Source: Escherichia coli
GTDB taxonomy: Bacteria > Pseudomonadota > Gammaproteobacteria > Enterobacterales > Enterobacteriaceae
Length of the DNA: 64,000 bases
NCBI RefSeq assembly: GCF_003991155.1
Contig: NZ_CP031293.1
Reading direction: 5' to 3' (one strand)
The translations under genes were made by a program, and so were the position numbers. This document shows, piece after piece, positions 36,632 to 64,000 of the stretch (within the stretch, counting starts at the first letter, position 1; each line of letters opens with the position of its first letter). Under the pieces are notes generated by a model, which saw nothing but the letters and a program-made list of their open reading frames with translations, was not told the origin of the DNA and did not search any database.

Positions 36632-37461
36632 GAACACACCTTTTATCTTTTATCGCTGTTCAGTATGAGTGATTACCTGTGGATTCCTGAGCACACATAA
36701 GGGGTAACCATAAACATTAGCGATGCCATACGTATAACATCCCACATCACTATCAAGAAGATTATCTTTACCTCTGATGCTCGCTCAAAAACAGTTACGC
36801 TAAATACCTTAAAAAGGTAATCACAAGTCAAACTCAGGAGATAATCACGCAAGAATGCAATATTAAAATTCAGATACTCATTTTTGGTAATAAAGAAGTA
36901 GTTGGACTATTTCGATATTTATAATTTCCCACTACGTATTGACGCCCATTCATGAGTAAAGGCGCATTATATGAATTTAACAATCCAGATCAACTGAAAA
37001 TACCTCAACCTCATAAACACATAGCGTCAACATTCAATGACATAATGAGTAAAGATGTTGGTTATGCATACACGTCATTACTCTATGCCTATCCCTTAAC
37101 AACCTGCTTTTTAAGACTGAATCCATTCAGCAATAGATAGCCAACATTATAACAATGACAATAAAAACAATATTTAAAACAATCAATAAAATATCAGGCA
37201 CAGACAATTAAACCTTAAACAACAAACGGTTACATTGATTTTAGTTGATTTGCGCTACGCGTTCCCCATGAATAAAGCGTCATTTCAAATTAGCACCAAT
37301 ATTTACATTAAATAAGACTAAGCTTATTGAACATTCACAACAGTCCAAACGTAGGTTTTGGGCTTCAATAGTTCTTTTCTTTTTTATTATCTGTTGCCTG
37401 GCAATCATCAATCGATACTAAGGGCTTAACTGTACAGATATAACGTATCAAGAGGTAAGAG

Positions 37462-37494
37462 AAACCGCGCCATATGCAGACATGGCGCGGTTTT
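37462..37494 (-). terminator. probable intrinsic terminator downstream of betT
   Basis: Perfect 12-bp inverted repeat AAACCGCGCCAT/ATGGCGCGGTTT around an 8-nt loop; on the minus strand the stem is followed by UUUCUCUU; 13 bp past the betT stop. Confidence 0.55.
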
Positions 37495-37506
37495 ATGCAA
37501 AAACAA

Positions 37507-39540
37507 TCACGCGTCCGGGAACATCACGCTATGGCCCGGCGCTTCACGATGGAGATGGATAAAGTTAAGATGCCGCTCGTACTGGTCAAGAATATCGGTG
37601 ATCACCTGCTCTTTGCTGTAGTCCATCAGGTCGTTGCCCTGGCTGCCTTCTAACAGGAAGGTTTCCAGCCGGTAGTAGGTCGATTTACCGCTACGTGCGC
37701 GGTAGGTAAAGCCCGGCACCGAATATTGCTGCGGCCAAATCTGATAGACAAAGTTTTGCTCTTCGCCCATATGCACCAACAAATCCAGATGCCCCAACTG
37801 TTGTCCCTCTTCCGGCGGCAGGCTTTTTAGCTCCACGTACGCGCCGCGCAACCGCAACTCCTGCGCCACTTCTTCCATTGCCGGGTAACAGACCGTCTCC
37901 ATCATCTGTTTAGTGTAACGCGTGCCCGGATAATTCATCAGGCGCGAGAGACGTTTTTTCCAGCTCAGGCGATCCTGAAGCCCCAGCGGTCGCGGTGCGG
38001 TATCGCGGTTGGCACTTTCACGGCGGTAATCTTCTACCTTCAGAGATTTATACAACCCCGCCATCACGAAGAAGATCACAAAGCTGAACGGCAGGCCCAT
38101 AATCACCGTGGTGTTTTGCAGCGCGGATATCCCGTTGGTCATCAGCATGCCGAGCGTCAGCAGGCCAATCGCCACCGACCAGAAGACGCGCAGCCAGCCG
38201 GGGGCGTCGCTGTTGATATCTTTAAGCTGCGAGGTGAAATTCCCCAGCACCAGCGCCCCGGAGTCCGCCGAGGTCACATAAAACAGCAGGCCAGTAATGG
38301 TGGCGACGGAGGCGCTAAAGGTAAACGCCGGATACTGCGCCAGCAGGCTGTAGAAGCCGCGCTCCGGATGGACCATCGCTTCCTCGGCAAATGCCGCGCC
38401 GCCGTGGATGATTTCATACAGCGCGCTATTGCCGAACACCGAGAGCCATAACAGCGTGAAGGTAAACGGAATAATCAACGTGCCCAGCACGAACTGGCGA
38501 ATGGTACGCCCACGCGAGATACGCGCCAGGAACAAGCCGACAAACGGCGACCATGCCACCCACCATGCCCAGAAGAAGAGCGTCCAGTTATTCATCCACT
38601 CAACCGGACGGTCGAAGGCAAAACTGTTGAGCGTCATGCCCATAAAGCGATTCACATAGTCGCCAACATTCAGCACCAGTGCATTAAGCAGGAACGAAGT
38701 GTCGCCCATAAACAACACGAAAAGGATCAATCCCAGCGCCAGCGCAACGTTAAGTTCCGATAACACGCGAATGCCCTTATCGACACCGGAGGTGACAGAG
38801 ATCGTTGCGATGATCACCGACAAGGCGATCAGTGCCGCTTTCGCCGCCATTGAATCGGGAATATCAAACAGTACGCTCAAGCCATAGTTAAGCTGCACCA
38901 CACCAATACCGAGCGTAGTGGCAATACCGAAGATGGTGCCGATCACCGCTGCAATATCCACTGAGTGACCTATCGGCCCGTTAATCCGTTTACCGAAGAT
39001 CGGGTACAGCGCTGAGCGGATGGTGAGCGGCAAATTATAACGATAGCTAAAGTATCCGAGCGCCATGCCCATCAGCGCATACATCGACCAGCCGGTTAAG
39101 CCGTAGTGAAACAGCGTCCAGACCATCGCCTGACGCGCGGCCTCAATCGTCTGACCCGCGCCTTCCGGCGGCTGCATATACTGCGTTACCGGTTCGGCTA
39201 CGGAAAAGAACATCAGGTCGATACCGATCCCGGCAGCAAACAGCATCGCCGCCCAACTCAGCAGACTGAATTCCGGTTTTGATTGTTCTGGCCCGAGCTT
39301 CACCGAACCAAAACGCGAACAAGCGATACAGACCACAAAGACAATATAGAGCGTTGCCGCCAGCAGATAGTACCAACCGAAGGTTTTAGAAACCCAGTCC
39401 AGCGTGCGGTCAATCCACAGGGCCGAGAAGTCGCGAAACAGGATCGTTGTCAGGGAAAACAACAAAATCAGTCCGGCGGAAGTGTAAAACACCACCGGAT
39501 TGATTTTGTCCTTTTCCCTGCTGTGTGAAAGGTCTGTCAT
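37507..39540 (-). CDS. betT: high-affinity choline transporter (BCCT family)
   Basis: 677-aa polytopic ORF MTDLSHSREKDKINPVVFYTSAGLILLFS; divergent from betIBA. Confidence 0.95.
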   Translation of the reverse strand: MTDLSHSREKDKINPVVFYTSAGLILLFSLTTILFRDFSALWIDRTLDWVSKTFGWYYLLAATLYIVFVVCIACSRFGSVKLGPEQSKPEFSLLSWAAMLFAAGIGIDLMFFSVAEPVTQYMQPPEGAGQTIEAARQAMVWTLFHYGLTGWSMYALMGMALGYFSYRYNLPLTIRSALYPIFGKRINGPIGHSVDIAAVIGTIFGIATTLGIGVVQLNYGLSVLFDIPDSMAAKAALIALSVIIATISVTSGVDKGIRVLSELNVALALGLILFVLFMGDTSFLLNALVLNVGDYVNRFMGMTLNSFAFDRPVEWMNNWTLFFWAWWVAWSPFVGLFLARISRGRTIRQFVLGTLIIPFTFTLLWLSVFGNSALYEIIHGGAAFAEEAMVHPERGFYSLLAQYPAFTFSASVATITGLLFYVTSADSGALVLGNFTSQLKDINSDAPGWLRVFWSVAIGLLTLGMLMTNGISALQNTTVIMGLPFSFVIFFVMAGLYKSLKVEDYRRESANRDTAPRPLGLQDRLSWKKRLSRLMNYPGTRYTKQMMETVCYPAMEEVAQELRLRGAYVELKSLPPEEGQQLGHLDLLVHMGEEQNFVYQIWPQQYSVPGFTYRARSGKSTYYRLETFLLEGSQGNDLMDYSKEQVITDILDQYERHLNFIHLHREAPGHSVMFPDA

Positions 39541-39597
39541 CCAGTATCCCCACTGTTATTGTTACCATTTAAAATCAAATTAGTAACAATTAAGACA

Positions 39598-39625
39598 CAT
39601 TTTATATTGAACGTCCAATCAATAA
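39598..39625. promoter_or_regulatory. probable BetI operator in the betT-betI divergent promoter region
   Basis: Reverse complement reads TTGATTGGACGTTCAATATAAAATG, an imperfect inverted repeat (TTGATTGGA / TTCAAT) matching the BetI site as I recall it. Confidence 0.5.
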
Positions 39626-39668
39626 CCGCTTTAATAGATAAACAACGCTGATGAATGGAGTGGCGAAA

Positions 39669-40256
39669 ATGCCCAAATTGGGGATGCAGTCGATCCGGCG
39701 CAGACAACTGATCGACGCCACGCTGGAAGCAATAAATGAAGTGGGCATGCACGATGCAACGATCGCGCAGATCGCCCGCCGTGCAGGCGTTTCTACGGGG
39801 ATCATCAGCCACTATTTCAGGGACAAAAATGGTCTGCTGGAAGCAACCATGCGCGATATCACCAGTCAGCTGCGTGACGCGGTTTTGAATCGATTACATG
39901 CACTTCCGCAGGGCAGTGCAGAGCAGCGATTACAGGCGATTGTTGGCGGAAACTTCGATGAAACGCAGGTGAGCAGTGCGGCGATGAAAGCCTGGCTGGC
40001 GTTCTGGGCCAGCAGTATGCATCAGCCGATGCTCTATCGTTTACAGCAGGTCAGCAGCCGTCGCTTGCTGTCGAACCTGGTGAGCGAGTTTCGCCGCGAA
40101 TTGCCGCGCCACCAGGCACAGGAAGCGGGCTACGGACTTGCCGCGCTGATTGACGGATTATGGCTGCGCGCGGCACTGAGCGACAAACCGCTGGATAAAC
40201 CTCTCGCACACTCGCTGACCCGTCACTTTATTACTCAGCATTTACCCACCGATTAA
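39669..40256 (+). CDS. betI: TetR-family repressor of the bet regulon
   Basis: ORF 39651..40256; ATG at 39669 gives [50 protein letters not shown] (TetR HTH), 195 aa. Confidence 0.93.
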
Positions 40257-40269
40257 CCGAGGAGACGTG

Positions 40270-41742
40270 ATGTCCCGAATGGCAGAACAGCAGCTTTATA
40301 TACATGGTGGTTATACCTCCGCCACCAGCGGTCGCACCTTCGAGACCATTAACCCGGCCAACGGTAACGTGCTGGCGACCGTGCAGGCCGCCGGGCGTGA
40401 GGATGTCGATCGCGCCGTGAAGAGTGCCCAACAGGGGCAAAAAATCTGGGCGGCGATGACCGCTATGGAACGCTCGCGTATTCTGCGTCGGGCCGTTGAT
40501 ATTCTACGTGAACGCAATGACGAACTCGCAAAACTGGAAACCCTCGACACCGGAAAAGCATATTCGGAAACCTCAACCGTCGATATCGTTACCGGTGCGG
40601 ACGTGCTGGAGTACTACGCCGGGCTGATCCCGGCGCTGGAAGGCAGCCAGATCCCGTTGCGTGAGACGTCATTTGTTTATACCCGCCGCGAACCGCTGGG
40701 CGTAGTGGCAGGGATTGGCGCATGGAACTACCCGATTCAGATTGCCCTGTGGAAATCCGCCCCCGCGCTGGCGGCAGGCAATGCAATGATTTTCAAACCG
40801 AGCGAAGTCACCCCGCTTACCGCGTTAAAGCTGGCCGAAATTTACAGCGAAGCGGGCCTGCCGGACGGCGTATTTAACGTGTTGCCGGGCGTGGGCGCGG
40901 AGACCGGGCAGTATCTGACCGAGCATCCGGGCATTGCCAAAGTGTCATTTACCGGCGGTGTCGCCAGCGGCAAAAAAGTGATGGCTAACTCGGCGGCCTC
41001 TTCCCTGAAAGAAGTGACCATGGAGCTGGGCGGTAAATCACCGCTGATCGTTTTTGACGATGCGGATCTCGATCTCGCCGCCGATATCGCCATGATGGCG
41101 AATTTCTTCAGCTCCGGTCAGGTGTGTACCAACGGCACTCGCGTCTTCGTTCCGACGAAATGCAAAGCCGCATTTGAACAAAAGATTCTGGCGCGCGTTG
41201 AGCGCATTCGCGCGGGCGACGTTTTCGATCCGCAAACTAACTTCGGCCCGCTGGTCAGCTTCCCGCATCGCGATAACGTGCTGCGCTATATCGCCAAAGG
41301 CAAAGAGGAAGGCGCGCGCGTACTGTGCGGCGGCGATGTACTGAAAGGCGATGGCTTCGATAACGGCGCATGGGTTGCACCGACCGTGTTCACCGATTGC
41401 CGCGACGAAATGACCATCGTGCGCGAAGAGATCTTCGGTCCGGTGATGTCGCTTCTCACTTATGAATCTGAGGACGAAGTGATTCGCCGCGCCAATGATA
41501 CCGACTACGGCCTGGCGGCGGGCATCGTGACGGCGGACCTGAACCGCGCGCATCGCGTCATTCATCAGCTGGAAGCGGGTATTTGCTGGCTCAACACCTG
41601 GGGCGAATCCCCTGCTGAGATGCCCGTTGGCGGCTACAAACACTCCGGCATTGGTCGCGAGAACGGCGTGATGACGCTCCAGAGTTACACCCAGGTGAAG
41701 TCCATCCAGGTTGAGATGGCTAAATTCCAGTCCATATTCTAA
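40270..41742 (+). CDS. betB: betaine aldehyde dehydrogenase
   Basis: 490 aa from ATG 40270 ([14 protein letters not shown]); ALDH motifs ELGGKSP and catalytic-Cys segment [13 protein letters not shown]. Confidence 0.95.
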
Positions 41743-41755
41743 CCAGGAGGTTTAT

Positions 41756-43444
41756 TTGCAATTTGACTACATCATTATTGGTGCCGGCTCAGCCGGCAAC
41801 GTTCTCGCTACCCGTCTGACTGAAGATCCGAACACAACCGTGCTGCTGCTTGAAGCAGGCGGCCCGGACTATCGCTTTGACTTCCGCACCCAGATGCCCG
41901 CTGCGCTGGCATTCCCGCTACAGGGTAAACGCTACAACTGGGCCTATGAAACGGAACCGGAACCGTTTATGAACAACCGTCGCATGGAGTGCGGACGCGG
42001 TAAGGGGCTTGGCGGGTCATCACTGATCAACGGCATGTGTTACATCCGTGGTAACGCGCTGGATCTCGATAACTGGGCGCAAGAACCCGGTCTGGAGAAC
42101 TGGAGCTACCTCGACTGTCTGCCCTACTATCGCAAGGCCGAGACTCGCGATGTGGGCGAGAACGATTACCACGGTGGCGATGGCCCGGTGAGCGTCACCA
42201 CCTCCAAACCCGGCGTCAATCCGCTGTTTGAAGCGATGATTGAAGCGGGCGTGCAGGCGGGCTACCCACGCACGGACGATCTCAACGGCTATCAGCAGGA
42301 AGGTTTTGGCCCGATGGATCGCACCGTCACGCCGCATGGCCGTCGCGCCAGCACCGCGCGTGGCTATCTCGCTCAGGCCAAATCGCGCCCTAACCTGACT
42401 ATTCGTACTCACGCCATGACCGATCACATCATTTTTGACAGCAAACGCGCGGTGGGCGTCGAGTGGCTGGAAGGCGACAGCACCATTCCGACCCGCGCGG
42501 CGGCGAATAAAGAAGTGCTGTTATGTGCAGGCGCGATTGCTTCACCGCAGATCCTGCAACGCTCCGGCGTCGGCAACGCTGAACTGCTGGCGGAGTTTGA
42601 TATTCCGCTGGTGCATGAATTACCTGGCGTCGGCGAAAATCTTCAGGATCACCTGGAGATGTATCTGCAATATGAGTGCAAAGAACCGGTTTCCCTCTAC
42701 CCTGCCCTGCAGTGGTGGAATCAGCCGAAAATCGGTGCGGAGTGGCTGTTTGGCGGCACCGGCGTTGGTGCCAGCAACCACTTTGAAGCAGGCGGATTTA
42801 TTCGCAGCCGTGAGGAATTTGCGTGGCCGAATATTCAGTACCATTTCCTGCCAGTGGCGATTAACTATAACGGCTCGAACGCAGTGAAAGAGCACGGCTT
42901 CCAGTGCCACGTCGGATCGATGCGCTCGCCAAGCCGTGGGCATGTGCGGATTAAATCCCGCGACCCGCACCAGCATCCAGCGATTCTGTTTAACTACATG
43001 TCGCACGAGCAGGACTGGCAGGAGTTCCGCGACGCAATTCGCATCACCCGGGAGATCATGCATCAACCGGCGCTGGATCAGTATCGTGGCCGCGAAATCA
43101 GCCCCGGTGTCGAATGCCAGACGGATGAGCAGCTCGATGAGTTTGTGCGTAATCACGCCGAAACCGCCTTCCACCCATGCGGTACGTGCAAAATGGGGTA
43201 CGACGAGATGTCCGTTGTGGATGGCGAAGGCCGCGTGCACGGGCTGGAAGGATTACGCGTAGTCGATGCGTCAATTATGCCGCAGATTATCACCGGCAAT
43301 CTGAACGCCACGACGATTATGATTGGCGAGAAAATGGCGGATATGATTCGCGGGAAGGATGCGTTGCCGAGGAGCACGGCGGGATATTATGTGGCAAATG
43401 GGATGCCGGTGAGAGCGAAAAAAATGAGTCGTGATGTGAACTGA
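41756..43444 (+). CDS. betA: choline dehydrogenase (GMC oxidoreductase)
   Basis: ORF 41711..43444 overlaps betB; likely start is TTG 41756, 5 nt after the RBS AGGAGG, giving (M)[17 protein letters not shown] (FAD-binding). Exact start is uncertain. Confidence 0.93.
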
Positions 43445-43975
43445 CTCAGGAACCTATCAGATTGAGAGTTACCGTTCTACTATGAGGACCGAATCCTTAT
43501 ATAAAACACTGAGGTAACTCTCATGCTTCATATCCAGTATTCATGATGCTGGCTTTTTGCTGATATTTAACCCGAACATTCCTGATACAGACTATTAATT
43601 CATTTATCTGCGGCAGATTTTATTTTCTGGATATATTATGAGTGAACAAATCAAACAGGATATCGATCTGATTGAGATTTTATTTTATCTGAAGAAAAAG
43701 GTAGATGAATACCAACAAAACTCTGGGCAGTAATAAACAGCATTCTGATAGAGAGTGCCTGTATAAAGCTGAAGTGACAATGACCGGGAAGGGAACCCGT
43801 TTTCAGGAATGGATGCCTGTCTTTTTCAATTTAAATATCCTGGCATTAGTAATGCCAGGATATTTACAGAAGAGCAGCATAACCATGACGGAACGGGGTT
43901 AAGTCAGGTTGTCCTAAACGCTATTTTCAACCTCGTATGCCTTCTTCAGGTTTATGTCCAGACTTCATATCTCTC

Positions 43976-44671
43976 TCAACAATCCTCAATAATCAGATAC
44001 ACCGCTTTCACCGGGCCATGAACTCCGACGACTTTGATAAGCTCAATATCCGCCGTTGAACTGGGGCCGCTAATGATGTTAATGCAGGAAGGCATTCGTT
44101 CACCGGCCTGCGCTTTCTGATGCAATTTTTCTGCGAGTTGCGCTACACGCGGCAGGATAGTGCTTTTACGCAGGATAAAAAGAGAAGATTCCGGGAGCAG
44201 GCTCAATGAACGCCCGCGCCCGGCGGCGGAAAAAAGAACCACGCCTCCCGATTCGGTTAAACCATATTCAGCATACACTACGCCAACTTTAGCCTGCTCT
44301 GCTTGTGATATGTTCTCAATACCTTTCGCCGGATCCCAAACAACGGCATTGCATTCCTGCTGCAAACGTTCGCTAATCCCCAATTCCTCCAGCCTCGTGT
44401 CACCGCTAATCACGATCGACTGATCTCCCAGCTCTTTACACAGACGTATTGCAGCTTCTGCCGCCTTCGCCTCGCTGGTCAGTTCACAGCGCGTCAACAT
44501 AACATCGCTGGCAAACTGGATAAACGCGTCACAGCGCTGCTGTTGGGTAAGTTGGGTAAGCCGCTCGTTAGCATAGTTGTTTAGCGGCGCATCTTCTGCT
44601 TGCGGTTCAAGTCGCAGCGGGCGACCCAGTGCCTGAGCAACGTTATTCAAAAATTCGCTCCGATTATCCAT
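43976..44671 (-). CDS. ykgG: LutC-like protein (DUF162)
   Basis: ORF 43976..44824; ATG at 44671 gives MDNRSEFLNNVAQALGRPL (231 aa); 8-nt overlap with the ykgF stop. Confidence 0.85.
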   Translation of the reverse strand: MDNRSEFLNNVAQALGRPLRLEPQAEDAPLNNYANERLTQLTQQQRCDAFIQFASDVMLTRCELTSEAKAAEAAIRLCKELGDQSIVISGDTRLEELGISERLQQECNAVVWDPAKGIENISQAEQAKVGVVYAEYGLTESGGVVLFSAAGRGRSLSLLPESSLFILRKSTILPRVAQLAEKLHQKAQAGERMPSCINIISGPSSTADIELIKVVGVHGPVKAVYLIIEDC

Positions 44672-46091
44672 TCTTTTTCTCCTGCGCCTGATGTTTCTTA
44701 AACCAACTACGGAAACTCTCTCCGTCAGCTTCAGGAAGATCGCGTGCTTCCATCCAGTCGCTAATCGCGCCAAATTTGAGTGGTGTTTTGCCGCCATTGA
44801 TAAACCAGCTTGCCGCATGAGCACCAGCCATCATCCCAACTTTCCACAATCCTGGATGACTATTGGCATAAGCGAACATTTTTATCGCCCGTTGCTCTGC
44901 TTTTGCGGTGATCCCTTTTTCAGCCATCACCCGACGATGACGCAAAATCAGTTTTGACAGCGGAATACGCACCGGACACACGCTGTCACAAGCGGTGCAT
45001 AAAGAGCAGGCGTAGGGTAAATCTTTAAAATCTTTATAGCCGCCAAGTAGCGGAGAAATCACCGCACCAATTGGCCCTGGATAAATAGAGCCATATCCAT
45101 GACCGCCAATATGGCGATATGCCGGACAAGTATTCATACAAGCCCCGCAGCGAATACAGCGCAGCACATCCCGAAATTCAGAGGCCAGCACCTCAGAACG
45201 CCCGTTATCGACAATAACCAGATGAAACTCTTCAGGACCATCAACGTGCCCCGCTTCGCGCGGTCCTGTCAGCCAGGTGTTGTATCCCGTCAAACGTGCA
45301 CCAACGGCACTGCGCGCCAGCATGGTGATCAATACATCTACCTCGGCAAACGTGGGGGCAATACGCTCCATTCCCATCACTGCAATATGCGTTTTAGGCA
45401 GCGTGGTACACATTCGCGCATTACCTTCATTGGTCACCAGGCATACCGAACCGGTCTCTGCCACCGCGAAATTACAGCCGGTAATACCTATTTCAGCACT
45501 GAGGAAATCTTCGCGGATTTTTTGCCGGATGAATAAGGTCATTGCTTCAGGCGTTTCCGACCCCTCATAGCCCAGACGTTCGTGTAGCACCCGACGGATC
45601 TGATGGCGATCTTTATGAATTGCCGGGACCACAACATGAGAGGGCGGATCTTGATCCAGCTGGAGAATGTATTCACCCAGATCGGTTTCAATCACCTGAA
45701 TGCCAGCATCCTGCAACACATGATTGACACCAATCTCTTCGGTCACCATCGATTTAGATTTCACCACCTTCCGGGCATTTTTGCGTTGGGCAACCTGTAA
45801 AATGTAGCGGGTAGCGTCTTCTTTGGTTTTTGCAAAATAGACGTGACCGCCGTTTTGCGTCACTTTTTCTGAGAGCTGGTACAGATAAGCGTCGAGATTA
45901 CTCAGAACATGATCACGTATCTGGGCGGCCCGATCGCGCCATTCCTCCCAGTGCCCCAATTCATCGACCATTTTTTGCCGATTTGCCCCGATACGCTGCT
46001 GCGCGTTTGCCACCGCTTTGCGCATGATCGGATCTTCAATTTGCTGACGGATGCGTGTCTTAAAATCTGTATTACTGGTTTTGATCGACAT
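44664..46091 (-). CDS. ykgF: LutB-like iron-sulfur oxidoreductase
   Basis: 475 aa; two 4Fe-4S ferredoxin motifs, CIRCGACMNTCP and CSLCTACDSVCP. Confidence 0.88.
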   Translation of the reverse strand: MSIKTSNTDFKTRIRQQIEDPIMRKAVANAQQRIGANRQKMVDELGHWEEWRDRAAQIRDHVLSNLDAYLYQLSEKVTQNGGHVYFAKTKEDATRYILQVAQRKNARKVVKSKSMVTEEIGVNHVLQDAGIQVIETDLGEYILQLDQDPPSHVVVPAIHKDRHQIRRVLHERLGYEGSETPEAMTLFIRQKIREDFLSAEIGITGCNFAVAETGSVCLVTNEGNARMCTTLPKTHIAVMGMERIAPTFAEVDVLITMLARSAVGARLTGYNTWLTGPREAGHVDGPEEFHLVIVDNGRSEVLASEFRDVLRCIRCGACMNTCPAYRHIGGHGYGSIYPGPIGAVISPLLGGYKDFKDLPYACSLCTACDSVCPVRIPLSKLILRHRRVMAEKGITAKAEQRAIKMFAYANSHPGLWKVGMMAGAHAASWFINGGKTPLKFGAISDWMEARDLPEADGESFRSWFKKHQAQEKKNG

Positions 46092-46101
46092 CTTTATATC
46101 C

Positions 46102-46821
46102 TCAGCGACTCATCAGCACTTCAGCAATATGCATCACTTTGACTTTCTGCCCTTCCCGTTGTAATCGTCCACTGATGTTCAGCAGGCAACTCACGTCAGC
46201 ACCAATTAAATACTCAGGGCGGGCTTCCATCAGGTGCACAACCTTTTCTTTCACCATCTCGCCGGATATTTCGGCCATTTTGACCGAGAACGTGCCGCCA
46301 AATCCGCAGCAGGTATCCTGTTCAGCAAAGGTCAACAGCTCCAGTCCACGCACATTTTTCAGCAGCGTAAGTGGTTCGTCCTTCACCCCCAGCTTACGGG
46401 CCAGGCTACAAGATGGGTGATACACCGCTCTCCCTTGCAAACTGGCACCTACATCGACTACCCCTAATGTATTAACAATAAAAGAGGTGAGATCCTGCAT
46501 ACGCGCGGCAACCTTTTCGGCACGTGATGCCCATTCAGGTTCATCCGCCAGATACGTCGGGTAACTTTTTACGGCATAGGTGCAAGAGCCAGCCGGTGAA
46601 ATAATGGGATCGTCGTTATCCTCCAGTGCGGCGATCAGATTTTTCATCCCTGGAATCGCTTCTTTGATATAACCACTATTGATCGCAGGCTGACCGCAGC
46701 ATCCCTGTTTCTCCGGGAAATTTACGCGACAGCCGAGTTTTTCCAGTAGCAGCACGGAGTCTCGTGCCATTCTTGATTTCAGGGCGTCACCAATACAGGT
46801 GACAAAGAAATTGACATTCAC
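46102..46821 (-). CDS. ykgE: LutA-like cysteine-rich (CCG-domain) oxidoreductase subunit
   Basis: 239 aa; cysteine-rich motifs CCG and CSCA-type; first gene of ykgEFG. Confidence 0.85.
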   Translation of the reverse strand: MNVNFFVTCIGDALKSRMARDSVLLLEKLGCRVNFPEKQGCCGQPAINSGYIKEAIPGMKNLIAALEDNDDPIISPAGSCTYAVKSYPTYLADEPEWASRAEKVAARMQDLTSFIVNTLGVVDVGASLQGRAVYHPSCSLARKLGVKDEPLTLLKNVRGLELLTFAEQDTCCGFGGTFSVKMAEISGEMVKEKVVHLMEARPEYLIGADVSCLLNISGRLQREGQKVKVMHIAEVLMSR

Positions 46822-47346
46822 AACTAATACTCCATTACTTCATGCCCATTTATGCCCGATGGTTCCCCCCTTCCGGGGGATCAATCATCAATAAATATGG
46901 CGTTCTTTTTTAATTGGCTAGCAACATACCACCCCTCATTTGTATGACAAATGATAATCTTTCATCTAAACTTCAAATGCAATAACTAATTTTATTTCTT
47001 TCGGCATCGCTCACATTTTATAGGGAAATCGACGATCATTTTTGGCATAAGAAATCCATTTAAAAAGGCTACACCCCTTATACCTATTCAGAGCTACTTA
47101 TTCAGGGGTTATTGAGATATACACTGATGGTGCACAAAAAAATCACCGACAATAATCACGCATCAAGTAATAGTCGGGATTTTATTTAATTGAAGCAATT
47201 TAGTTTGCATTTTTATTTAAAAACTGAGCTAGAGTCCATCAAAAAAATATATAAAGCCCAAAACCACCGTTGGAAATAGAAATAGTTGAAAGGCTCACAA
47301 CTCCCGGAATGCGGATTATCTTTGCCCTGATTTCTGGCGGTTTTAT

Positions 47347-48201
47347 TCAGGGTGCAAGCTGTCTGACCCTTTCCCGATATTCTCCCGGGGTACAACCAAA
47401 CTCGCGAACAAACGCCTTGTGAAAAGATGATTCACTGGCATAGCCTACTGACTCAGCGATCACCACAACAGGGAGCGTTTCCCGGGAAAACATCTGGGCC
47501 GCTATTTGTAGACGCAACTTTGTTAATACAGCCAGCGGCGTGGTTCCGGAAACATCACGGAAAAGCTGGGCAAAACTTGCCCGGGACATGTGGGCGATGC
47601 TGGCCAGCGATTCGACGGTCCAGGCGTGTCCTGGCATTTCCAGCATTTGCTGTATTACCGCACCAAGACGTGGATGTAGAAGCAAACTGAGAATGTTTTT
47701 CTCTGTATTAACCTGTGCAATCCACTCACGCACCGCGAGGGTAAAGAATGTAGCGCAGATCTGGCTACACAGAGCATCCACTCCCGGCATTGCCGATCTG
47801 GATTCCTGTTGTAAAAACGGGATCGCCTCCCTCAGCCAGTTATATTCCACGCTATGGTTCACTGGTGCTACAAACAGCGTTTCCGGCAAAGACGTTAAAA
47901 AATAACGCGCCGAATGTTGCAGCCGAAGAGTGCCACAGACAATACAGGTCGATTCATTATCGACATGACTCAGGCGATGAGCTGAATTTTGTGGTAGCAG
48001 GACCACATTTCCCGGGCGTAATGTAAAAATCTCTCCCGTCGGCATTTCCAGCTTCGCCGCTCCTTGCGTTAACGCATGCCAACGAATAACCGACAATTCC
48101 CCGGCACCATGTGGAAGTTGCCAGTCACTTCCTAACACGCAATTCTTATCGATCGTTCCTTGTGGAGCGTTAAGCATCAACAAACGGCTAAGAGCATCCA
48201 T
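47347..48201 (-). CDS. rclR: AraC-family reactive-chlorine-responsive activator
   Basis: ORF 47347..48252; ATG at 48201 gives MDALSRLLMLNAPQG (284 aa); C-terminal AraC HTH; divergent from rclABC. Confidence 0.9.
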   Translation of the reverse strand: MDALSRLLMLNAPQGTIDKNCVLGSDWQLPHGAGELSVIRWHALTQGAAKLEMPTGEIFTLRPGNVVLLPQNSAHRLSHVDNESTCIVCGTLRLQHSARYFLTSLPETLFVAPVNHSVEYNWLREAIPFLQQESRSAMPGVDALCSQICATFFTLAVREWIAQVNTEKNILSLLLHPRLGAVIQQMLEMPGHAWTVESLASIAHMSRASFAQLFRDVSGTTPLAVLTKLRLQIAAQMFSRETLPVVVIAESVGYASESSFHKAFVREFGCTPGEYRERVRQLAP

Positions 48202-48427
48202 ATCAGACTCCTGAGTGGTTTTTTGATTACAAACACCAACAATCTTAGTCAATAATTAATCTAATACCATCAAATAGTTAATCATGATTTTTGTTTTGTG
48301 ATTCTGATTAAGAAAAAGAAAATACCAGACGATAAGACAAAATATCAAGCGTTGTGAAGAAATGTTATTTGCTCTTTTGCGTCTATAGTCATGATGTCAA
48401 ATGAACGCGTTTCGACAGGAAATCATC

Positions 48428-49753
48428 ATGAATAAATATCAGGCAGTTATTATTGGTTTTGGCAAGGCTGGAAAAACATTAGCCGTCACGCTGGCAAAAG
48501 CAGGTTGGCGTGTGGCTCTCATCGAACAATCAAATGCAATGTATGGCGGGACCTGTATTAATATCGGCTGTATCCCAACCAAAACATTGGTTCATGACGC
48601 ACAGCAGCACACAGATTTTGTCCGTGCCATACAGCGTAAAAATGAAGTGGTTAATTTTTTACGTAATAAGAATTTTCATAATCTTGCGGATATGCCCAAT
48701 ATCGACGTGATCGACGGCCAGGCGGAGTTTATCAATAATCATAGCCTGCGTGTTCATCGGCCTGAGGGAAATCTGGAAATTCATGGCGAGAAAATTTTTA
48801 TTAATACCGGTGCAAAAACCGTGGTTCCGCCAATTCCTGGAATTACCACCACGCCTGGTGTATATGACAGCACCGGATTACTTCATCTAAAAGAATTGCC
48901 TGGGCATTTAGGTATTTTGGGCGGCGGATATATTGGCGTTGAGTTCGCCTCTATGTTCGCTAATTTTGGCAGCAAGGTAACCATTTTAGAAGCAGCTTCG
49001 CTGTTTTTGCCTCGGGAAGATCGGGATATTGCTGATAACATCGCGACGATTTTACGCGATCAGGGCGTCGATATTATCCTCAATGCCCATGTGGAGCGAA
49101 TCAGTCACCATGAAAATCAAGTGCAAGTGCATAGCGAGCACGCCCAACTGGCGGTGGATGCACTGTTAATAGCTTCCGGTCGTCAACCGGCTACCGCTTC
49201 TTTACATCCAGAAAATGCCGGTATCGCAGTAAACGAGCGCGGGGCAATTGTCGTTGACAAGCGATTACATACCACCGCAGACAATATTTGGGCGATGGGA
49301 GATGTTACCGGCGGGCTGCAATTTACTTACATATCACTAGATGATTACCGCATTGTACGTGATGAGTTACTGGGTGAAGGCAAACGTAGTACTGATGATC
49401 GGAAAAATGTGCCTTATTCCGTATTTATGACACCGCCACTGTCCAGGGTTGGTATGACAGAAGAACAAGCCAGAGAGAGTGGTGCTGATATTCAGGTGGT
49501 GACATTGCCTGTAGCTGCAATTCCGCGCGCCAGAGTGATGAACGATACCCGTGGGGTATTAAAAGCGATTGTTGATAATAAAACCCAACGTATATTAGGG
49601 GCATCACTGCTGTGTGTTGACTCCCACGAGATGATCAATATAGTGAAAATGGTGATGGATGCCGGGCTGCCTTATAGCATATTACGCGATCAGATATTTA
49701 CTCATCCGTCGATGAGCGAATCACTCAATGATCTATTTTCATTAGTCAAATAA
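48428..49753 (+). CDS. rclA: pyridine nucleotide-disulfide oxidoreductase
   Basis: ORF 48401..49753; ATG at 48428 gives MNKYQAVIIGFGKAGK (441 aa); redox-active disulfide motif GGTCINIGCIPTK. Confidence 0.9.
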   Translation: MNKYQAVIIGFGKAGKTLAVTLAKAGWRVALIEQSNAMYGGTCINIGCIPTKTLVHDAQQHTDFVRAIQRKNEVVNFLRNKNFHNLADMPNIDVIDGQAEFINNHSLRVHRPEGNLEIHGEKIFINTGAKTVVPPIPGITTTPGVYDSTGLLHLKELPGHLGILGGGYIGVEFASMFANFGSKVTILEAASLFLPREDRDIADNIATILRDQGVDIILNAHVERISHHENQVQVHSEHAQLAVDALLIASGRQPATASLHPENAGIAVNERGAIVVDKRLHTTADNIWAMGDVTGGLQFTYISLDDYRIVRDELLGEGKRSTDDRKNVPYSVFMTPPLSRVGMTEEQARESGADIQVVTLPVAAIPRARVMNDTRGVLKAIVDNKTQRILGASLLCVDSHEMINIVKMVMDAGLPYSILRDQIFTHPSMSESLNDLFSLVK

Positions 49754-49861
49754 ACTCAAAATCAGACGCCAGAACAAATATTCTGGCGTCTCAGAGAAAA
49801 TAATCTTATTAATTCCCTGTTATTATATAACTTCTTAATCACTTCATTGATGGTATTTTAT

Positions 49862-50098
49862 ATGTTTAAAAAACCTGTTTTATTTGCAACACTATTATCT
49901 GGCGTTATGGCATTTTCCACCAATGCAGATGATAAAATAATTCTGAAACATATCAGCGTCTCGTCAGTATCAGCATCACCGACAGTTCTGGAGGATGCCA
50001 TTGCTGATATGGCCAGAAAATATAATGCTTCATCCTGGAAAGTCACATCGATGCGAATTGATAATAATTCAACCGCAACAGCAGTATTGTATAAATAA
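49862..50098 (+). CDS. rclB: small periplasmic DUF1471 protein
   Basis: ATG at 49862 gives MFKKPVLFATLLSGVMAFSTNA (signal peptide), 78 aa. Confidence 0.78.
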   Translation: MFKKPVLFATLLSGVMAFSTNADDKIILKHISVSSVSASPTVLEDAIADMARKYNASSWKVTSMRIDNNSTATAVLYK

Positions 50099-50109
50099 GG
50101 ATGTTTACA

Positions 50110-50703
50110 ATGGAGAAATACCTGCACCTGTTAAGTCGGGGAGATAAAATTGGCCTGACATTGATTCGTCTGAGTATTGCGATTGTTTTTATGTGGATTG
50201 GGTTATTAAAGTTTGTCCCTTACGAGGCAGACAGCATTACACCATTCGTCGCAAACAGTCCACTAATGTCGTTCTTTTATGAACACCCGGAAGACTATAA
50301 ACAGTATCTGACTCACGAAGGCGAATACAAACCAGAAGCAAGAGCATGGCAAACGGCTAATAATACCTATGGTTTTTCCAACGGTCTTGGCGTCGTGGAG
50401 GTGATTATTGCTCTGCTGGTTTTGGCTAATCCTGTCAATCGCTGGTTAGGTTTATTGGGTGGGCTGATGGCATTTACCACGCCGCTGGTAACACTCTCAT
50501 TTTTAATCACCACCCCGGAGGCATGGGTACCCGCATTGGGTGACGCTCATCATGGTTTCCCTTATTTATCCGGTGCTGGTCGCCTGGTATTGAAAGATAC
50601 TCTGATGCTGGCAGGTGCTGTCATGATAATGGCAGATTCGGCGCGGGACATTCTTAAACAACGCAGTAATGAATCCAGTTCAACGTTAAAAACTGAATAT
50701 TGA
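50110..50703 (+). CDS. rclC: inner-membrane protein (DUF417)
   Basis: ATG at 50110 gives MEKYLHLLSRGDKIGLTLIRLSIAIVFMWIGLLKF, 197 aa, hydrophobic. Confidence 0.82.
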   Translation: MEKYLHLLSRGDKIGLTLIRLSIAIVFMWIGLLKFVPYEADSITPFVANSPLMSFFYEHPEDYKQYLTHEGEYKPEARAWQTANNTYGFSNGLGVVEVIIALLVLANPVNRWLGLLGGLMAFTTPLVTLSFLITTPEAWVPALGDAHHGFPYLSGAGRLVLKDTLMLAGAVMIMADSARDILKQRSNESSSTLKTEY

Positions 50704-50864
50704 TAATCCGAACACTGTCTGTTGTTCACTTTTTCAGGCGTCAGGCTTTCCTTGCTAATGGGTGAAGCCTGACGCCATATTACCTGAAACAGGACAATGT
50801 AAGGTTCAATATAACTCCCTTATTAAAACATTTATGTCGTCTCAGGTAAAATAAGTGATTAATA

Positions 50865-51734
50865 TCAATCATGTATTTTTACAGCAAGACAACCACGAAC
50901 AAACTCAGGATTAAAATGTTTTACCGATTCCCCAACATAACCCAAATCTAGCGAACTAATTTGCGCCATTTCTTTCTCTGTCAGTGAGAAATCCCAGATA
51001 GCAAAATTTTCTTCGATACGCTGTTGATGTGTTGATTTCGGAATAACGACCACTCCCCGTTGAATATTCCAACGCAGAATGACCTGAGAAATCGATTTTT
51101 GATGGGCATCTGCAATACTCTGAAGCAGATTATTTTCAAAGGGTTTATGTCGTCCACCACCTAACGGAGCCCATGCTTCAGGCTGCACGTTATAATACTT
51201 CATGATTGCCAGCGCCTCTGGTTGGGCAAAATAGGGATGCAACTCGACCTGATTGACCATCGGTTTAACTCTTACCGTTTCACAAAAGTTCGCCAGAACA
51301 TGAGGGTAGAAATTGGAAACCCCAATCGCTTTTAATTTGCCCTCCTCATAGGCATCTTCGAGTGCACGCCACGCACTAAAATAATCGCGCATGGCCTGGT
51401 GCAATAAATAGAGATCGAAGTATTCTAGCCCCGATTTTTTTAATGATGCTTCAATACCTGCTGCTGCAATATCCTGATTCAACATATCCTGCACCCACAA
51501 TTTAGACGTTATAAATAACTCTTCTCGGGTACATAAACCTTCAGATATGGCTTCACGAACGGCTTCACCGACGGCATCTTCATTACCGTATACCGCTGCA
51601 GTGTCGATGAGTCGATAACCCGTGCGGATAGCATTCAACACTGACTGTTTGCACACGTCTTTATCGGTAACCTGAAAAACACCAAATCCCATCATCGGCA
51701 TTTTCAGATTGTTACTTAATACGGAAAATTCCAC
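50865..51734 (-). CDS. aldo-keto reductase family oxidoreductase
   Basis: ORF 50865..51749; probable GTG start at 51734 preceded by GGAGGG; AKR motifs ([32 protein letters not shown]). Paralogue of the AKR at 57780..58631. May correspond to an intact form of the K-12 ykgQ pseudogene (uncertain). Confidence 0.8.
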   Translation of the reverse strand: MEFSVLSNNLKMPMMGFGVFQVTDKDVCKQSVLNAIRTGYRLIDTAAVYGNEDAVGEAVREAISEGLCTREELFITSKLWVQDMLNQDIAAAGIEASLKKSGLEYFDLYLLHQAMRDYFSAWRALEDAYEEGKLKAIGVSNFYPHVLANFCETVRVKPMVNQVELHPYFAQPEALAIMKYYNVQPEAWAPLGGGRHKPFENNLLQSIADAHQKSISQVILRWNIQRGVVVIPKSTHQQRIEENFAIWDFSLTEKEMAQISSLDLGYVGESVKHFNPEFVRGCLAVKIHD

Positions 51735-62774: not shown

Positions 62775-63018
62775 TAATCTTACAGGGAGATTCCTTATCT
62801 CCCTGACATTTATCCTTTATTGACTACACAACAATAATAAAATTACTCAAAAAGAAATTTCATTAAAGAAACAGAAAAGCAGCAACTCAATTATTAAGAT
62901 TATTAGAAACCCTTTGAAGGAATTATAAATAAAGCCATAATTCTTGGTTCCAAAGCTGGCAACAACTAACCAGTTAAAACATACGCATCAAAATCAGATA
63001 AACATTTGAGGTATTGTT

Positions 63019-64000
63019 ATGACAAATAAACACCCATCATTGTTTTCTCCTTTTATGCTGACAGAAAAAATAAAGCTACGTAATCGTATCGTTATGGCTC
63101 CTATGACGACCTGGTCAGCGAATCCTGATGGAACCATCTCTGAGCAAGAACTCGAATTTTATAAACGTCGCTCACAAAATGTTGGTTTAGTAATAACAGG
63201 ATGCACCTATGTCACGCCAAGCGGCATTGGGTTTACTCATGAATTTGCCGCGTATGACGACCGTTTCATTAACAGCCTTGAAAAGTTAGCAGCTGCAGCC
63301 AAAAGTGGCGGTGCTCCGGCTATTTTGCAGATTTTCCACGCCGGTAATAAAGCCATCCCGGAGCTTGTGCCAAATAACGATGTTATTAGTGCCAGCGCAT
63401 CAAGCGTAAAATCTGGTGACTTTATGAAGAGAGTGGTACAAAGCAGGGAAATGACTGAAAACGAAATTCAGGAAACCATTAGAGCATTCGGAGATGTCAC
63501 AAAAAGGGCGATTAAAGCAGGTTTTGATGGCGTTGAACTTCATGGTGCGCACGGATTCCTTCTGCAGAATTTCTTCTCCCCTCTATTTAACCAGCGTAAT
63601 GACCGATGGGGAGGAGATCTCGAAGGACGTATGCGCTTCCCGCTGGCCGTATTACAGGAAGTAAAAAATGTAGTCTATGAATATGCGACAAAGCCCTTTG
63701 CCATCGGTTACAGAATATCTCCTGAAGAATCTGCAACAGGGGGGCTGCGGATAGAGGATACTTATAAACTCCTTGATCGGCTCATTTCATCCGGTATTTC
63801 GTATATACATACCTCACTGGTCAGTATTAACGATAGCTACCCTGTTGAGTCGCCAAATGGCCCCCGAACTATTGAATTGATTTTAAATCATATTGCAGGC
63901 AGAGTGCCGGTAATCGCTGCAGGTAAAATACGCACACCGTCTCAGGCTCAAGAAGCAATTTCCACTGGCCTGCCACTTGTTGCGATCGGTAAAGGGCTGG
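63019..64000 (+). CDS. NADH:flavin oxidoreductase of the Old Yellow Enzyme family, 5' part (runs past window end)
   Basis: ATG at 63019 with RBS GAGG; MTNKHPSLFSPFMLTEKIKLRNRIVMAPMTT and LHGAHGFLLQNF are OYE hallmarks. Not in the ORF track because no stop is reached. Confidence 0.85.
   Translation, partial: MTNKHPSLFSPFMLTEKIKLRNRIVMAPMTTWSANPDGTISEQELEFYKRRSQNVGLVITGCTYVTPSGIGFTHEFAAYDDRFINSLEKLAAAAKSGGAPAILQIFHAGNKAIPELVPNNDVISASASSVKSGDFMKRVVQSREMTENEIQETIRAFGDVTKRAIKAGFDGVELHGAHGFLLQNFFSPLFNQRNDRWGGDLEGRMRFPLAVLQEVKNVVYEYATKPFAIGYRISPEESATGGLRIEDTYKLLDRLISSGISYIHTSLVSINDSYPVESPNGPRTIELILNHIAGRVPVIAAGKIRTPSQAQEAISTGLPLVAIGKGL

Follow-up and report, generated by a model that had tools for sequence, protein, structure and literature searches.

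The ykgEFG operon of Escherichia coli, a probable LutABC-type L-lactate dehydrogenase locus beside the reactive-chlorine genes

The ykgEFG locus and its three proteins

The window analyzed here, a stretch of 64,000 nucleotides from an E. coli chromosome that is 100% identical to several strains, contains ykgE, ykgF, and ykgG as three genes in a tight operon with the A-B-C order of LutABC and LldEFG (Table 1). A gap of 10 nt separates ykgE from ykgF, and the overlap between ykgF and ykgG suggests translational coupling. The region was found in 5238 of 5426 complete E. coli genomes. The span of the original prediction, 44664 to 46821, holds ykgF and ykgE but leaves ykgG, which it also described, almost wholly outside. 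Its account of the genes as tightly linked, with an 8-nt overlap of ykgF and ykgG, is borne out at 44664 to 44671, and rclR and rclABC, which it placed next to the operon, lie directly upstream in the window.

Table 1. Features of the ykgEFG locus and its surroundings (positions within the window)
Feature	Position	Strand	Description
Strong perfect hairpin	43832-43866	-	16 bp in predicted fold, -21.7 kcal/mol; about 110 nt downstream of ykgG; without U-run
ykgG	43976-44671	-	LutC/LldG-type subunit; 231 aa, LUD domain
ykgF stop/ykgG start overlap	44664-44671	-	8 nt, ATGGATAA
ykgF	44664-46091	-	LutB/LldF-type subunit; 475 aa: LUD 72-294, 2x[4Fe-4S] ferredoxin 309-376, LutB_C 386-468
ykgE	46102-46821	-	LutA/LldE-type subunit; 239 aa, GTG start, two CCG cysteine-rich domains, HdrB-like
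G+C-rich hairpin	46865-46879	-	CCCCCGGAAGGGGGG; in predicted ykgE 5' leader
YieP operator	46938-46952		Exact match to published palindromic motif ATTTGTATGACAAAT; begins one base past predicted -10
Predicted ykgE core promoter	46954-46982	-	-35 TTGCAT (46982-46977), 17-nt spacer, -10 GATTAT (46959-46954); read from sequence and alignment
rclR-rclABC block	about 47020-50870		Sister Escherichia species lack it as a whole
Weak hairpin followed by U7	47136-47178	-	About 170-210 nt past rclR stop; -12.5 kcal/mol, z -2.6
rclR	47347-48201	-	Co-directional with ykgEFG, 525 nt upstream; neighbour, no part of the enzyme
rclABC	48428-50703	+	Upstream of ykgEFG, beyond rclR

All three subunit types of the LutABC architecture were matched. 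YkgF contains the two 4Fe-4S motifs that had been read from its sequence, C312-x2-C-x2-C-x3-C322-P and C362-x2-C-x2-C-x3-C372-P, and matches Pfam LUD (178 bits), the dicluster model Fer4_8 (54.5 bits), and LutB_C (39.5 bits). It also passes the LutB/LldF equivalog model TIGR00273 of NCBIfam (777.3 bits against a cutoff of 444.8), and RefSeq names it "LutB/LldF family." YkgE, predicted to be a cysteine-rich CCG-domain protein, has nine cysteines and matches PF02754 in two stretches (115 bits), one for each of its CCG domains; NCBIfam holds no subunit-specific curated model for it, and its best matches there are to related families, below their cutoffs. YkgG, described earlier as DUF162-type, carries the LUD domain PF02589 (106 bits), the present name of DUF162 (PMC3924224), and is a "LutC/YkgG family protein" in RefSeq. 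The resemblance of ykgEFG to LutABC is established knowledge, already present in the RefSeq annotation and accompanied by a published phenotype, and adds nothing new.

Among 81 YkgE orthologues, all nine cysteines are conserved at 99% or more, eight of them invariant and C9 at 0.99. The eight ferredoxin cysteines and C206 of YkgF are invariant as well, as is C196 of YkgG (alignments of 78 to 81 sequences). Since key cysteines recur in 99% or more of these orthologues, we read ykgE, ykgF, and ykgG from the alignments as real genes and not chance open reading frames. No hydrophobic segment or predicted membrane helix was found in any of the three proteins, and the complex would therefore be soluble or peripheral.

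Transcriptional control and the rcl neighborhood

Both hexamers of the predicted ykgE promoter are kept in sister Escherichia species, and the prediction agrees with Reg-Seq data, in which the RNA polymerase site lies immediately ahead of that of the repressor (PMC7567609). A promoter scan also returned an overlapping candidate at 46950 to 46923. The YieP operator matches the published motif with 0 mismatches, where about 0.19 chance matches at up to 2 mismatches are expected in the window. The study that defined this motif found ykgEFG derepressed about 10-fold in a yieP deletion (PMC7642389), and YieP was identified at the ykgE promoter by mass spectrometry and knockout (PMC7567609). The site is kept with 0 to 2 mismatches in Escherichia, Citrobacter, Pluralibacter, Leminorella, and Proteus and with 3 in Budvicia and Limnobaculum; it is thus conserved across genera without rcl genes at the ykgEFG locus. 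Reg-Seq further reported that FNR activates the ykgE promoter under anaerobiosis (PMC7567609); the FNR consensus TTGATnnnnATCAA had no match at up to 2 mismatches in the 525-nt spacer between rclR and ykgE. Basal counts in K-12 are higher for ykgEFG than for rclR. Altogether, ykgEFG is an autonomous module with its own predicted promoter, repressed by the GntR-type regulator YieP.

The hairpin followed by U7 is the best terminator candidate between rclR and ykgE, is conserved in K-12 and Nissle, and is all that lies between the two genes in this respect: a terminator scan of the spacer on the ykgEFG strand gave no terminator-like site. A second candidate, a hairpin at 47238 to 47300, folded no better than shuffled sequences (z -1.0) and was rejected. 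The ykgE leader folded as a whole was no better than shuffles either (z -1.2). Downstream of ykgG, the strong hairpin is a candidate for the end of the operon transcript. An Rfam scan of 43300 to 48500 yielded no known RNA element; its sole match, to a miRNA at the weak hairpin, is at chance level (E 0.3).

We compared gene order in 80 orthologous loci from other species, each with fetched flanks of up to 8 kb on either side, and assessed the E. coli arrangement separately in the collection of 5426 complete genomes. The E-F-G order is kept in 80/80 orthologous loci, and no gene for RclR, RclA, RclB, or RclC was encountered in the fetched flanking DNA of any of them. Among the complete E. coli genomes, 5107 (94%) preserve the rclR-ykgE junction, which is missing from three sister Escherichia lineages among the 80 species. 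Homology with the sister species covers 43967 to 47019/47038 and resumes at 50871, and we read the rcl block from this alignment as a lineage-specific indel; ykgEFG would then have come to lie beside rclR-rclABC through gain or loss of that block in E. coli. Given that no orthologous locus carries rcl genes in its fetched flanks and that the block appears as an indel against sister Escherichia, the adjacency is specific to E. coli, reflects no conserved functional link, and should not be used for guilt-by-association annotation. We regard this E. coli-specific juxtaposition as a useful negative result on genomic context. The suggestion that placement beside rclR-rclABC hints at a stress role accordingly fares unevenly: comparative genomics, together with the operon's own YieP-controlled promoter, speaks against it, while expression under HOCl, described below, makes a regulatory link plausible. 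In strain MC4100, a 97-kb stretch that includes the RclR regulon is missing (Sultana et al.), and since ykgEFG directly adjoins rclR, it was most probably lost in the same deletion.

Substrate and response to hypochlorite

The substrate of YkgEFG had been described as not firmly established, a statement that no longer holds in full. Work on E. coli MP1 published in 2022 showed that a clean deletion of ykgEFG costs fitness anaerobically on L-lactate plus nitrate and not with D-lactate, and gives no phenotype in mouse colitis models (PMC9701030); oxidation of 2,4-dihydroxybutyrate has been attributed to three oxidoreductases, lldD, dld, and ykgEFG (PMC13279387). Engineers building strains that leave lactate unconsumed have deleted ykgF, and overexpression of ykgEFG left lactate titres unchanged. 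In the literature searched, we found no report in which the E. coli complex was assayed for enzyme activity. The activity of the Helicobacter pylori homologue is NAD-linked and not dye-linked, which leaves the electron acceptor of the family in doubt. The main physiological substrate might instead be another 2-hydroxy acid or a compound of the YieP regulon, such as a metabolite related to 3-hydroxypropionate. LldD already serves L-lactate in E. coli, the mutant's lack of a gut phenotype and the report on 2,4-dihydroxybutyrate fit such a role, and yohJK, a putative 3-hydroxypropionate exporter, is likewise under YieP control (PMC7642389). Furthermore, no LldP-family gene lies beside ykgEFG in the window. 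In other species, however, the orthologous operon is directly preceded by such a permease gene at 46 of the 72 loci that could be tested (co-directional in 37 of the 46, with gaps of 54 to 246 nt), and the permease thus appears as a frequent companion of the LutABC/LldEFG family and not a strict requirement, one that E. coli does without. The L-lactate specificity of the published defect and the YkgF score above the LutB/LldF equivalog cutoff also argue against a different substrate, as does the finding that a ykgEFG deletion brings no yohJK-like change in 3-hydroxypropionate tolerance (PMC7642389). We consider a main substrate other than L-lactate quite improbable.

Expression under hypochlorite had been proposed as a check on the stress connection, and its outcome is positive in the supplementary tables of two public RNA-seq studies, of strains CFT073 and Nissle 1917. 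In HOCl-treated CFT073, log2 changes were 3.19 for rclR, 3.19 for ykgE, 2.22 for ykgF, and 2.32 for ykgG. In Nissle, where gene identities were confirmed through gene order, they were 4.23 at 15 min and then 2.04 at 30 min for rclR, 2.78 and 1.27 for ykgE, 2.74 and 1.31 for ykgF, and 2.42 and 1.27 for ykgG. Induction of ykgEFG was thus 5- to 9-fold in CFT073 and 5- to 7-fold in Nissle at 15 min, in step with rclR. This co-induction is present in both data sets and is discussed in neither paper. Because HOCl raises ykgEFG 5- to 9-fold across the two strains, a regulatory link between the operon and chlorine stress in E. coli is plausible. With HOSCN in K-12, rclA rose 32-fold and rclR only 1.7-fold, while ykgE, ykgF, and ykgG changed by +0.5, +1.3, and +1.7 log2 in the wild type and were unchanged in rcl mutants, a weak and inconsistent response.

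Judging by these fold changes, the simplest account of the HOCl response would be that transcription starting at the HOCl-activated rclR promoter partly reads through the weak terminator. The rise could also originate at the ykgE promoter itself, if HOCl oxidizes and inactivates YieP or acts globally in some other way. The derepression of about 10-fold seen without YieP (PMC7642389) is close to the observed 5- to 9-fold, and nirBDC, genes of the FNR- and nitrate-type, are also up in HOCl-treated CFT073, which means that broad regulatory shifts do occur under HOCl. However, ykgE and rclR have the same fold change in CFT073, ykgEFG tracks the rclR time course in Nissle, and yohJ and yohK, which YieP also represses strongly, are not among the listed differential-expression rows for CFT073, although this last point weighs little. 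We therefore regard induction from the ykgEFG promoter as possible but distinctly less probable than read-through. A further step would make ykgEFG a working member of the reactive-chlorine defense, with RclR-dependent electron input from lactate or another 2-hydroxy acid that helps cells withstand or recover from HOCl or HOSCN, for instance where both lactate and neutrophils abound. The operon does rise and decay with rclR under HOCl in two strains, the rclR-ykgE junction persists in most complete E. coli genomes, and rclR and ykgEFG point the same way without a strong terminator in the spacer. Nonetheless, the adjacency is absent from 80/80 other species, including the three sister Escherichia lineages, ykgEFG retains its own YieP-controlled promoter, and HOSCN, despite its 32-fold effect on rclA, does not robustly raise ykgEFG; an enzyme rich in Fe-S clusters would, moreover, hardly be an advantage when the oxidant destroys such clusters. 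In published descriptions the RclR regulon comprises rclABC only, the main text of the literature searched makes no link between ykgEFG and chlorine stress, and we found there no published ykgEFG phenotype in reactive chlorine survival. To our knowledge, no RclR binding motif is known. We hold such a role in defense to be very unlikely. Only slightly less doubtful is an evolutionary version, in which rclRABC, gained just ahead of the ykgEFG promoter, would have coupled an Fe-S L-lactate dehydrogenase to the hypochlorite response by way of read-through, such that bleach or neutrophil attack would increase L-lactate oxidation and favor survival or regrowth in lactate-rich inflamed tissue.

We thus favor, with a probability of about 0.85, the explanation that ykgEFG encodes a three-subunit, NAD-independent Fe-S L-lactate dehydrogenase under autonomous YieP control, that its adjacency to rcl is lineage specific, and that read-through is the simplest account of its HOCl induction. 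Under this explanation, L-lactate would be oxidized to pyruvate at the LUD subunits (the N-terminal domain of YkgF and YkgG), and electrons would pass to the two [4Fe-4S] clusters in the HdrC-like domain of YkgF and onward through the HdrB-like CCG-domain clusters of YkgE to the respiratory chain, with a benefit to E. coli expected during nitrate respiration. If read-through is the true cause, the locus shows how insertion of a cassette can place a metabolic operon under stress control, and lists of "HOCl-induced" genes should be read with caution, as they include passengers. The reproducible co-induction of ykgEFG and rclR by HOCl in two strains is a small lead for future work.

Comparison with known lactate-oxidation and Fe-S systems

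Compared through domain and family models, ykgEFG has the same three proteins in the same order as the three-subunit Fe-S L-lactate utilization complexes LutABC of Bacillus subtilis (YvfV-YvfW-YvbY) and LldEFG of Shewanella oneidensis: a subunit with two CCG domains, a subunit combining LUD, 2x[4Fe-4S], and LutB_C, and a LUD subunit. The L-lactate-specific phenotype published for E. coli ykgEFG is a further likeness, and so is control of the operon by a GntR-type repressor, YieP in E. coli and LutR for B. subtilis LutABC. The E. coli locus differs in having no lactate permease gene, which many orthologous loci possess, and in a phenotype so far confined to nitrate respiration, LldD being otherwise dominant.

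The only structures recovered by a PDB sequence search were Hdr subunits and one LutC, the sole LUD structure found, and no LutABC-type complex was among them. This LutC, from Deinococcus radiodurans (PDB 2G40), is matched by YkgG residues 131 to 227 (E 4e-9), both proteins carrying Pfam LUD; it was solved as a single subunit without partners, and the NAD docking proposed for its active site is a model only (PMC3924224). Residues 5 to 216 of YkgE align with HdrB in sequence comparison (e.g., PDB 5odc, E 1.7e-4), PDB searches with YkgE gave HdrB chains at E 6e-5 to 2e-4, and the ferredoxin domain of YkgF aligns with HdrC (E 5.8e-5). YkgE also matches the C-terminal regions of GlcF, GlpC, and TfrB. 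The likeness of YkgE and YkgF to Hdr, GlcF, and GlpC supports a role in Fe-S electron relay. Membership in HdrBC was considered and rejected, since scores fall far under the curated cutoffs (TIGR03288, 28.6 versus 345 bits; TIGR03290, 20.7 versus 160; NF041890, 32 versus 270), and the relationship to Hdr, as judged from these comparisons, is one of fold and module similarity only. The substrate module of ykgEFG consists of LUD domains, whereas that of Hdr is the flavoprotein HdrA, and we found no evidence of disulfide reduction by YkgEFG.

A further parallel is LdhH, the large subunit of a quinone-dependent L-lactate dehydrogenase (NF045670), in which YkgF corresponds to positions 2 to 464 and YkgE to positions 468 to 705. 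YkgF scores 427 bits and YkgE 185 bits, both below the 800-bit cutoff, so that the proteins are related to LdhH without being its equivalogs. What is fused in LdhH is split over two genes in E. coli, and the correspondence of YkgF and YkgE together to the fused protein supports their physical association in a lactate dehydrogenase.

The ykgEFG locus and its neighbors

The ykgEFG feature is real, was correctly described, and is already known. Gene coordinates, which are those of the RefSeq annotation transferred onto the window, bear out the tight linkage that had been read from the sequence, with an 8-nt overlap between ykgF and ykgG and a 10-nt gap between ykgE and ykgF; the span originally assigned to the operon (44664-46821) contains ykgF and ykgE, and ykgG lies outside it. 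The window is E. coli chromosomal DNA. Several sequenced strains match the 3.5 kb around the feature at 100% identity, and 5238/5426 complete E. coli genomes contain the region. The allele at 44000-47500 is a minority one (at least 99% identity in 149/5258 E. coli records, with the majority at 95 to 99%), and E. whittamii YkgF shares 99% identity with the protein encoded here. Between ykgG and betA, ykgH is mostly deleted in this strain (window 43638-43703 and ~43692-43700): compared to the K-12 locus (L082), 565 bp inside ykgH (L082 12738-13303) are missing, and RefSeq has only a short partial pseudo-ORF at the remnant.

Features of the ykgEFG region, in window coordinates
Feature	Position	Strand	Remark
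ykgE	46102-46821	minus	RefSeq
ykgF	44664-46091	minus	RefSeq
ykgG	43976-44671	minus	RefSeq
rclR	47347-48201	minus	upstream of ykgE
rclA, rclB, rclC	48428-50703	plus	upstream of ykgE
betA	end at 43444		opposite flank of ykgEFG from the rcl genes
Predicted ykgE -35, TTGCAT	46982-46977	minus	17 nt spacing to -10
Predicted ykgE -10, GATTAT	46959-46954	minus	plausible, read from sequence
Exact YieP motif copy	46938-46952		motif search of the window
Second YieP near-match, ATTGTTATGACAAAT	63013-63027		2 mismatches; distant from ykgEFG
G+C-rich hairpin, CCCCCGGAAGGGGGG	46865-46879		in ykgE leader; partly conserved in sister species
Strongly conserved block, AAAATGTGAGCGATGCCGAAAGAAATAAAATTAG	~47021-46988		upstream of predicted -35
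Weak hairpin + U7	47178-47136	minus	-12.5 kcal/mol, z -2.6
Strong hairpin	43866-43832	minus	3' of ykgG

We fetched 80 loci with YkgF relatives from 80 other species (in Escherichia, Citrobacter, Pectobacterium, Serratia, Edwardsiella, Proteus, and Pasteurellaceae), with flanks of up to 8 kb per side. The E-F-G order was retained in all 80, and homologues of RclR, RclA, RclB, or RclC were found in the fetched flanks of none. The original prediction had taken the adjacent rcl genes as a hint of function, a reading that this synteny does not support, stable as the rclR-ykgE junction is within E. coli (5107/5426 genomes). Of the 72 loci whose upstream sequence is long enough, 46 carry an LldP-family lactate permease gene directly upstream of ykgE, co-directional with ykgE in 37 loci, with gaps of 54 to 246 nt. 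This permease shares just 22 to 35% identity with E. coli LldP (loci L005-L014, L019-L036, and L049-L080 of the fetched set), and its gene, which diverges from ykgE in Citrobacter, is co-directional with it in the other loci.

Three sister Escherichia lineages share DNA homology with the window from 43967 to 47019/47038, a stretch that takes in the three ykg genes, their promoter, and the YieP operator; the homology restarts at 50871, within the gene for an aldo-keto reductase past rclC. The betTIBA choline-to-betaine block (~37444-43967) is absent as a unit from these loci. The operator has 0 to 2 mismatches in Escherichia, Citrobacter, Pluralibacter, Leminorella, and Proteus and 3 in Budvicia and Limnobaculum, and all loci that keep it lack rcl genes. 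Taken together, synteny, homology boundaries, and operator conservation show ykgEFG and the ~200 nt of control DNA upstream of it to be a self-contained module, which in E. coli sits between two lineage-specific blocks, rcl and bet. The upstream homology edge (window 47020-47040) lies ~70 to 90 nt upstream of the operator, and pdeL directly follows ykgG in the three sister lineages.

Promoter control and the hypochlorite response

The motif of the GntR-type repressor YieP, atTTGTaTGAcaAAT (PMC7642389), has an exact copy whose first base falls one base past the predicted ykgE -10. This predicted arrangement agrees with the Reg-Seq study, where mass spectrometry and a knockout pinned down YieP as the protein at the ykgE promoter and the repressor site lies immediately 3' of the polymerase site (PMC7567609). 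The same study reported an FNR-dependent effect on this promoter in anaerobic growth; a search of the rclR-ykgE spacer gave no good match to the FNR consensus. A terminator scan of the minus strand of this spacer returned no terminator-like site, and the weak hairpin with U7 is the best terminator candidate between the rclR stop and the ykgE promoter.

The original prediction had named expression under hypochlorite as a check. We found no mention of ykgEFG under hypochlorite in the main texts of the papers searched; the data are in two supplementary tables.

Log2 change with HOCl, positive when up. CFT073 values are from PMC9600549 Table S1 (by its header, negative in the file is up with HOCl); Nissle 1917 values are from PMC7527725 Data Set S2, with locus tags confirmed by Nissle genome gene order
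Gene	CFT073	Nissle 15 min	Nissle 30 min
rclA	6.12	7.69	4.74
rclR	3.19	4.23	2.04
ykgE	3.19	2.78	1.27
ykgF	2.22	2.74	1.31
ykgG	2.32	2.42	1.27
betA		0.32	0.22

All three genes were up in both datasets, which support a regulatory coupling of ykgEFG to HOCl in E. coli. Most likely, the coupling reflects read-through from rclR, whose HOCl-raised transcription would partly run through the weak terminator into ykgEFG. At 15 min in Nissle, the ykgE/F/G rise in RPKM was ~30 to 45% of that of rclR, as expected from partial read-through. Inactivation of YieP could also raise expression, since ykgEFG is derepressed ~10-fold in a yieP mutant (PMC7642389), but this explanation is weakly disfavored, given that yohJ and yohK, the other genes under strong YieP repression, were not found among the CFT073 Table S1 rows listed. 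In K-12, HOSCN raised rclA 32-fold and rclR only 1.7-fold; the log2 changes of ykgE/F/G were +0.5/+1.3/+1.7 in the wild type, with no change in rcl mutants, results that count against a general link. Basal counts of ykgEFG in this dataset exceed those of rclR, confirming an independent ykgEFG promoter. A benefit of the coupling to HOCl is judged unlikely. A separate observation in CFT073 is that nirB, nirD, and nirC (nitrite reductase) rose 9- to 20-fold with HOCl (PMC9600549 Table S1), which is unexpected for aerobic oxidant stress and could bear on the induction mode of ykgE, reported to be FNR responsive.

Substrate, mobile copies, and relation to LutABC

The original prediction called the substrate not firmly established, a statement that published phenotypes and substrates have made partly outdated. 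With a clean deletion of ykgEFG constructed in E. coli MP1, Taylor et al. (2022) found a competitive defect on L-lactate plus nitrate under anaerobiosis; there was no defect on D-lactate, nor was there one in mouse colitis models, in which LldD is dominant (PMC9701030). According to a 2026 paper that cites Malfoy et al. (2024), lldD, dld, and ykgEFG oxidize 2,4-dihydroxybutyrate, and strain engineers delete ykgF to block lactate consumption. A search of a plasmid collection with 43976-46821 returned a diverged operon copy (80 to 90% DNA identity) on 186 plasmid records. Most of these plasmids are conjugative, and most come from Klebsiella and Escherichia. In some E. coli genomes the operon is present in 2 to 3 copies, and ST127 uropathogenic E. 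coli carries a horizontally acquired lutABC-lutP island (PMC9769692).

The proposed likeness to LutABC holds at the level of each subunit. YkgF, with LUD, 4Fe-4S dicluster, and LutB C-terminal domains, scores 777 bits against a cutoff of 444.8 for the NCBIfam equivalog "LutB/LldF family L-lactate oxidation iron-sulfur protein," and its two 4Fe-4S motifs (CxxCxxCxxxCP) lie at C312-C322 and C362-C372. YkgE has two CCG domains and nine cysteines, and YkgG is a LUD-domain protein, LUD being the new name of DUF162 (PMC3924224). Among 78 to 81 orthologues from other species, the nine YkgE cysteines are at least 99% conserved (all invariant but C9, at 0.99), as are, without variation, the eight cluster cysteines and C206 of YkgF and C196 of YkgG. 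No segment of YkgE, YkgF, or YkgG is hydrophobic over a length sufficient for a membrane helix.

A PDB sequence search turned up no entry for an entire LutABC-type complex. Sequence comparison with PDB entries shows YkgE to be similar to HdrB, the ferredoxin part of YkgF to HdrC, and YkgG to Deinococcus radiodurans LutC (2G40). From these likenesses and the domain makeup, electrons would likely pass from the LUD domains through the 2x[4Fe-4S] domain to the CCG clusters and on to the respiratory chain. In LdhH, the fused large subunit of a quinone L-lactate dehydrogenase, YkgF corresponds to positions 2-464 and YkgE to positions 468-705, end to end, an arrangement that argues that YkgE and YkgF function as a single unit.
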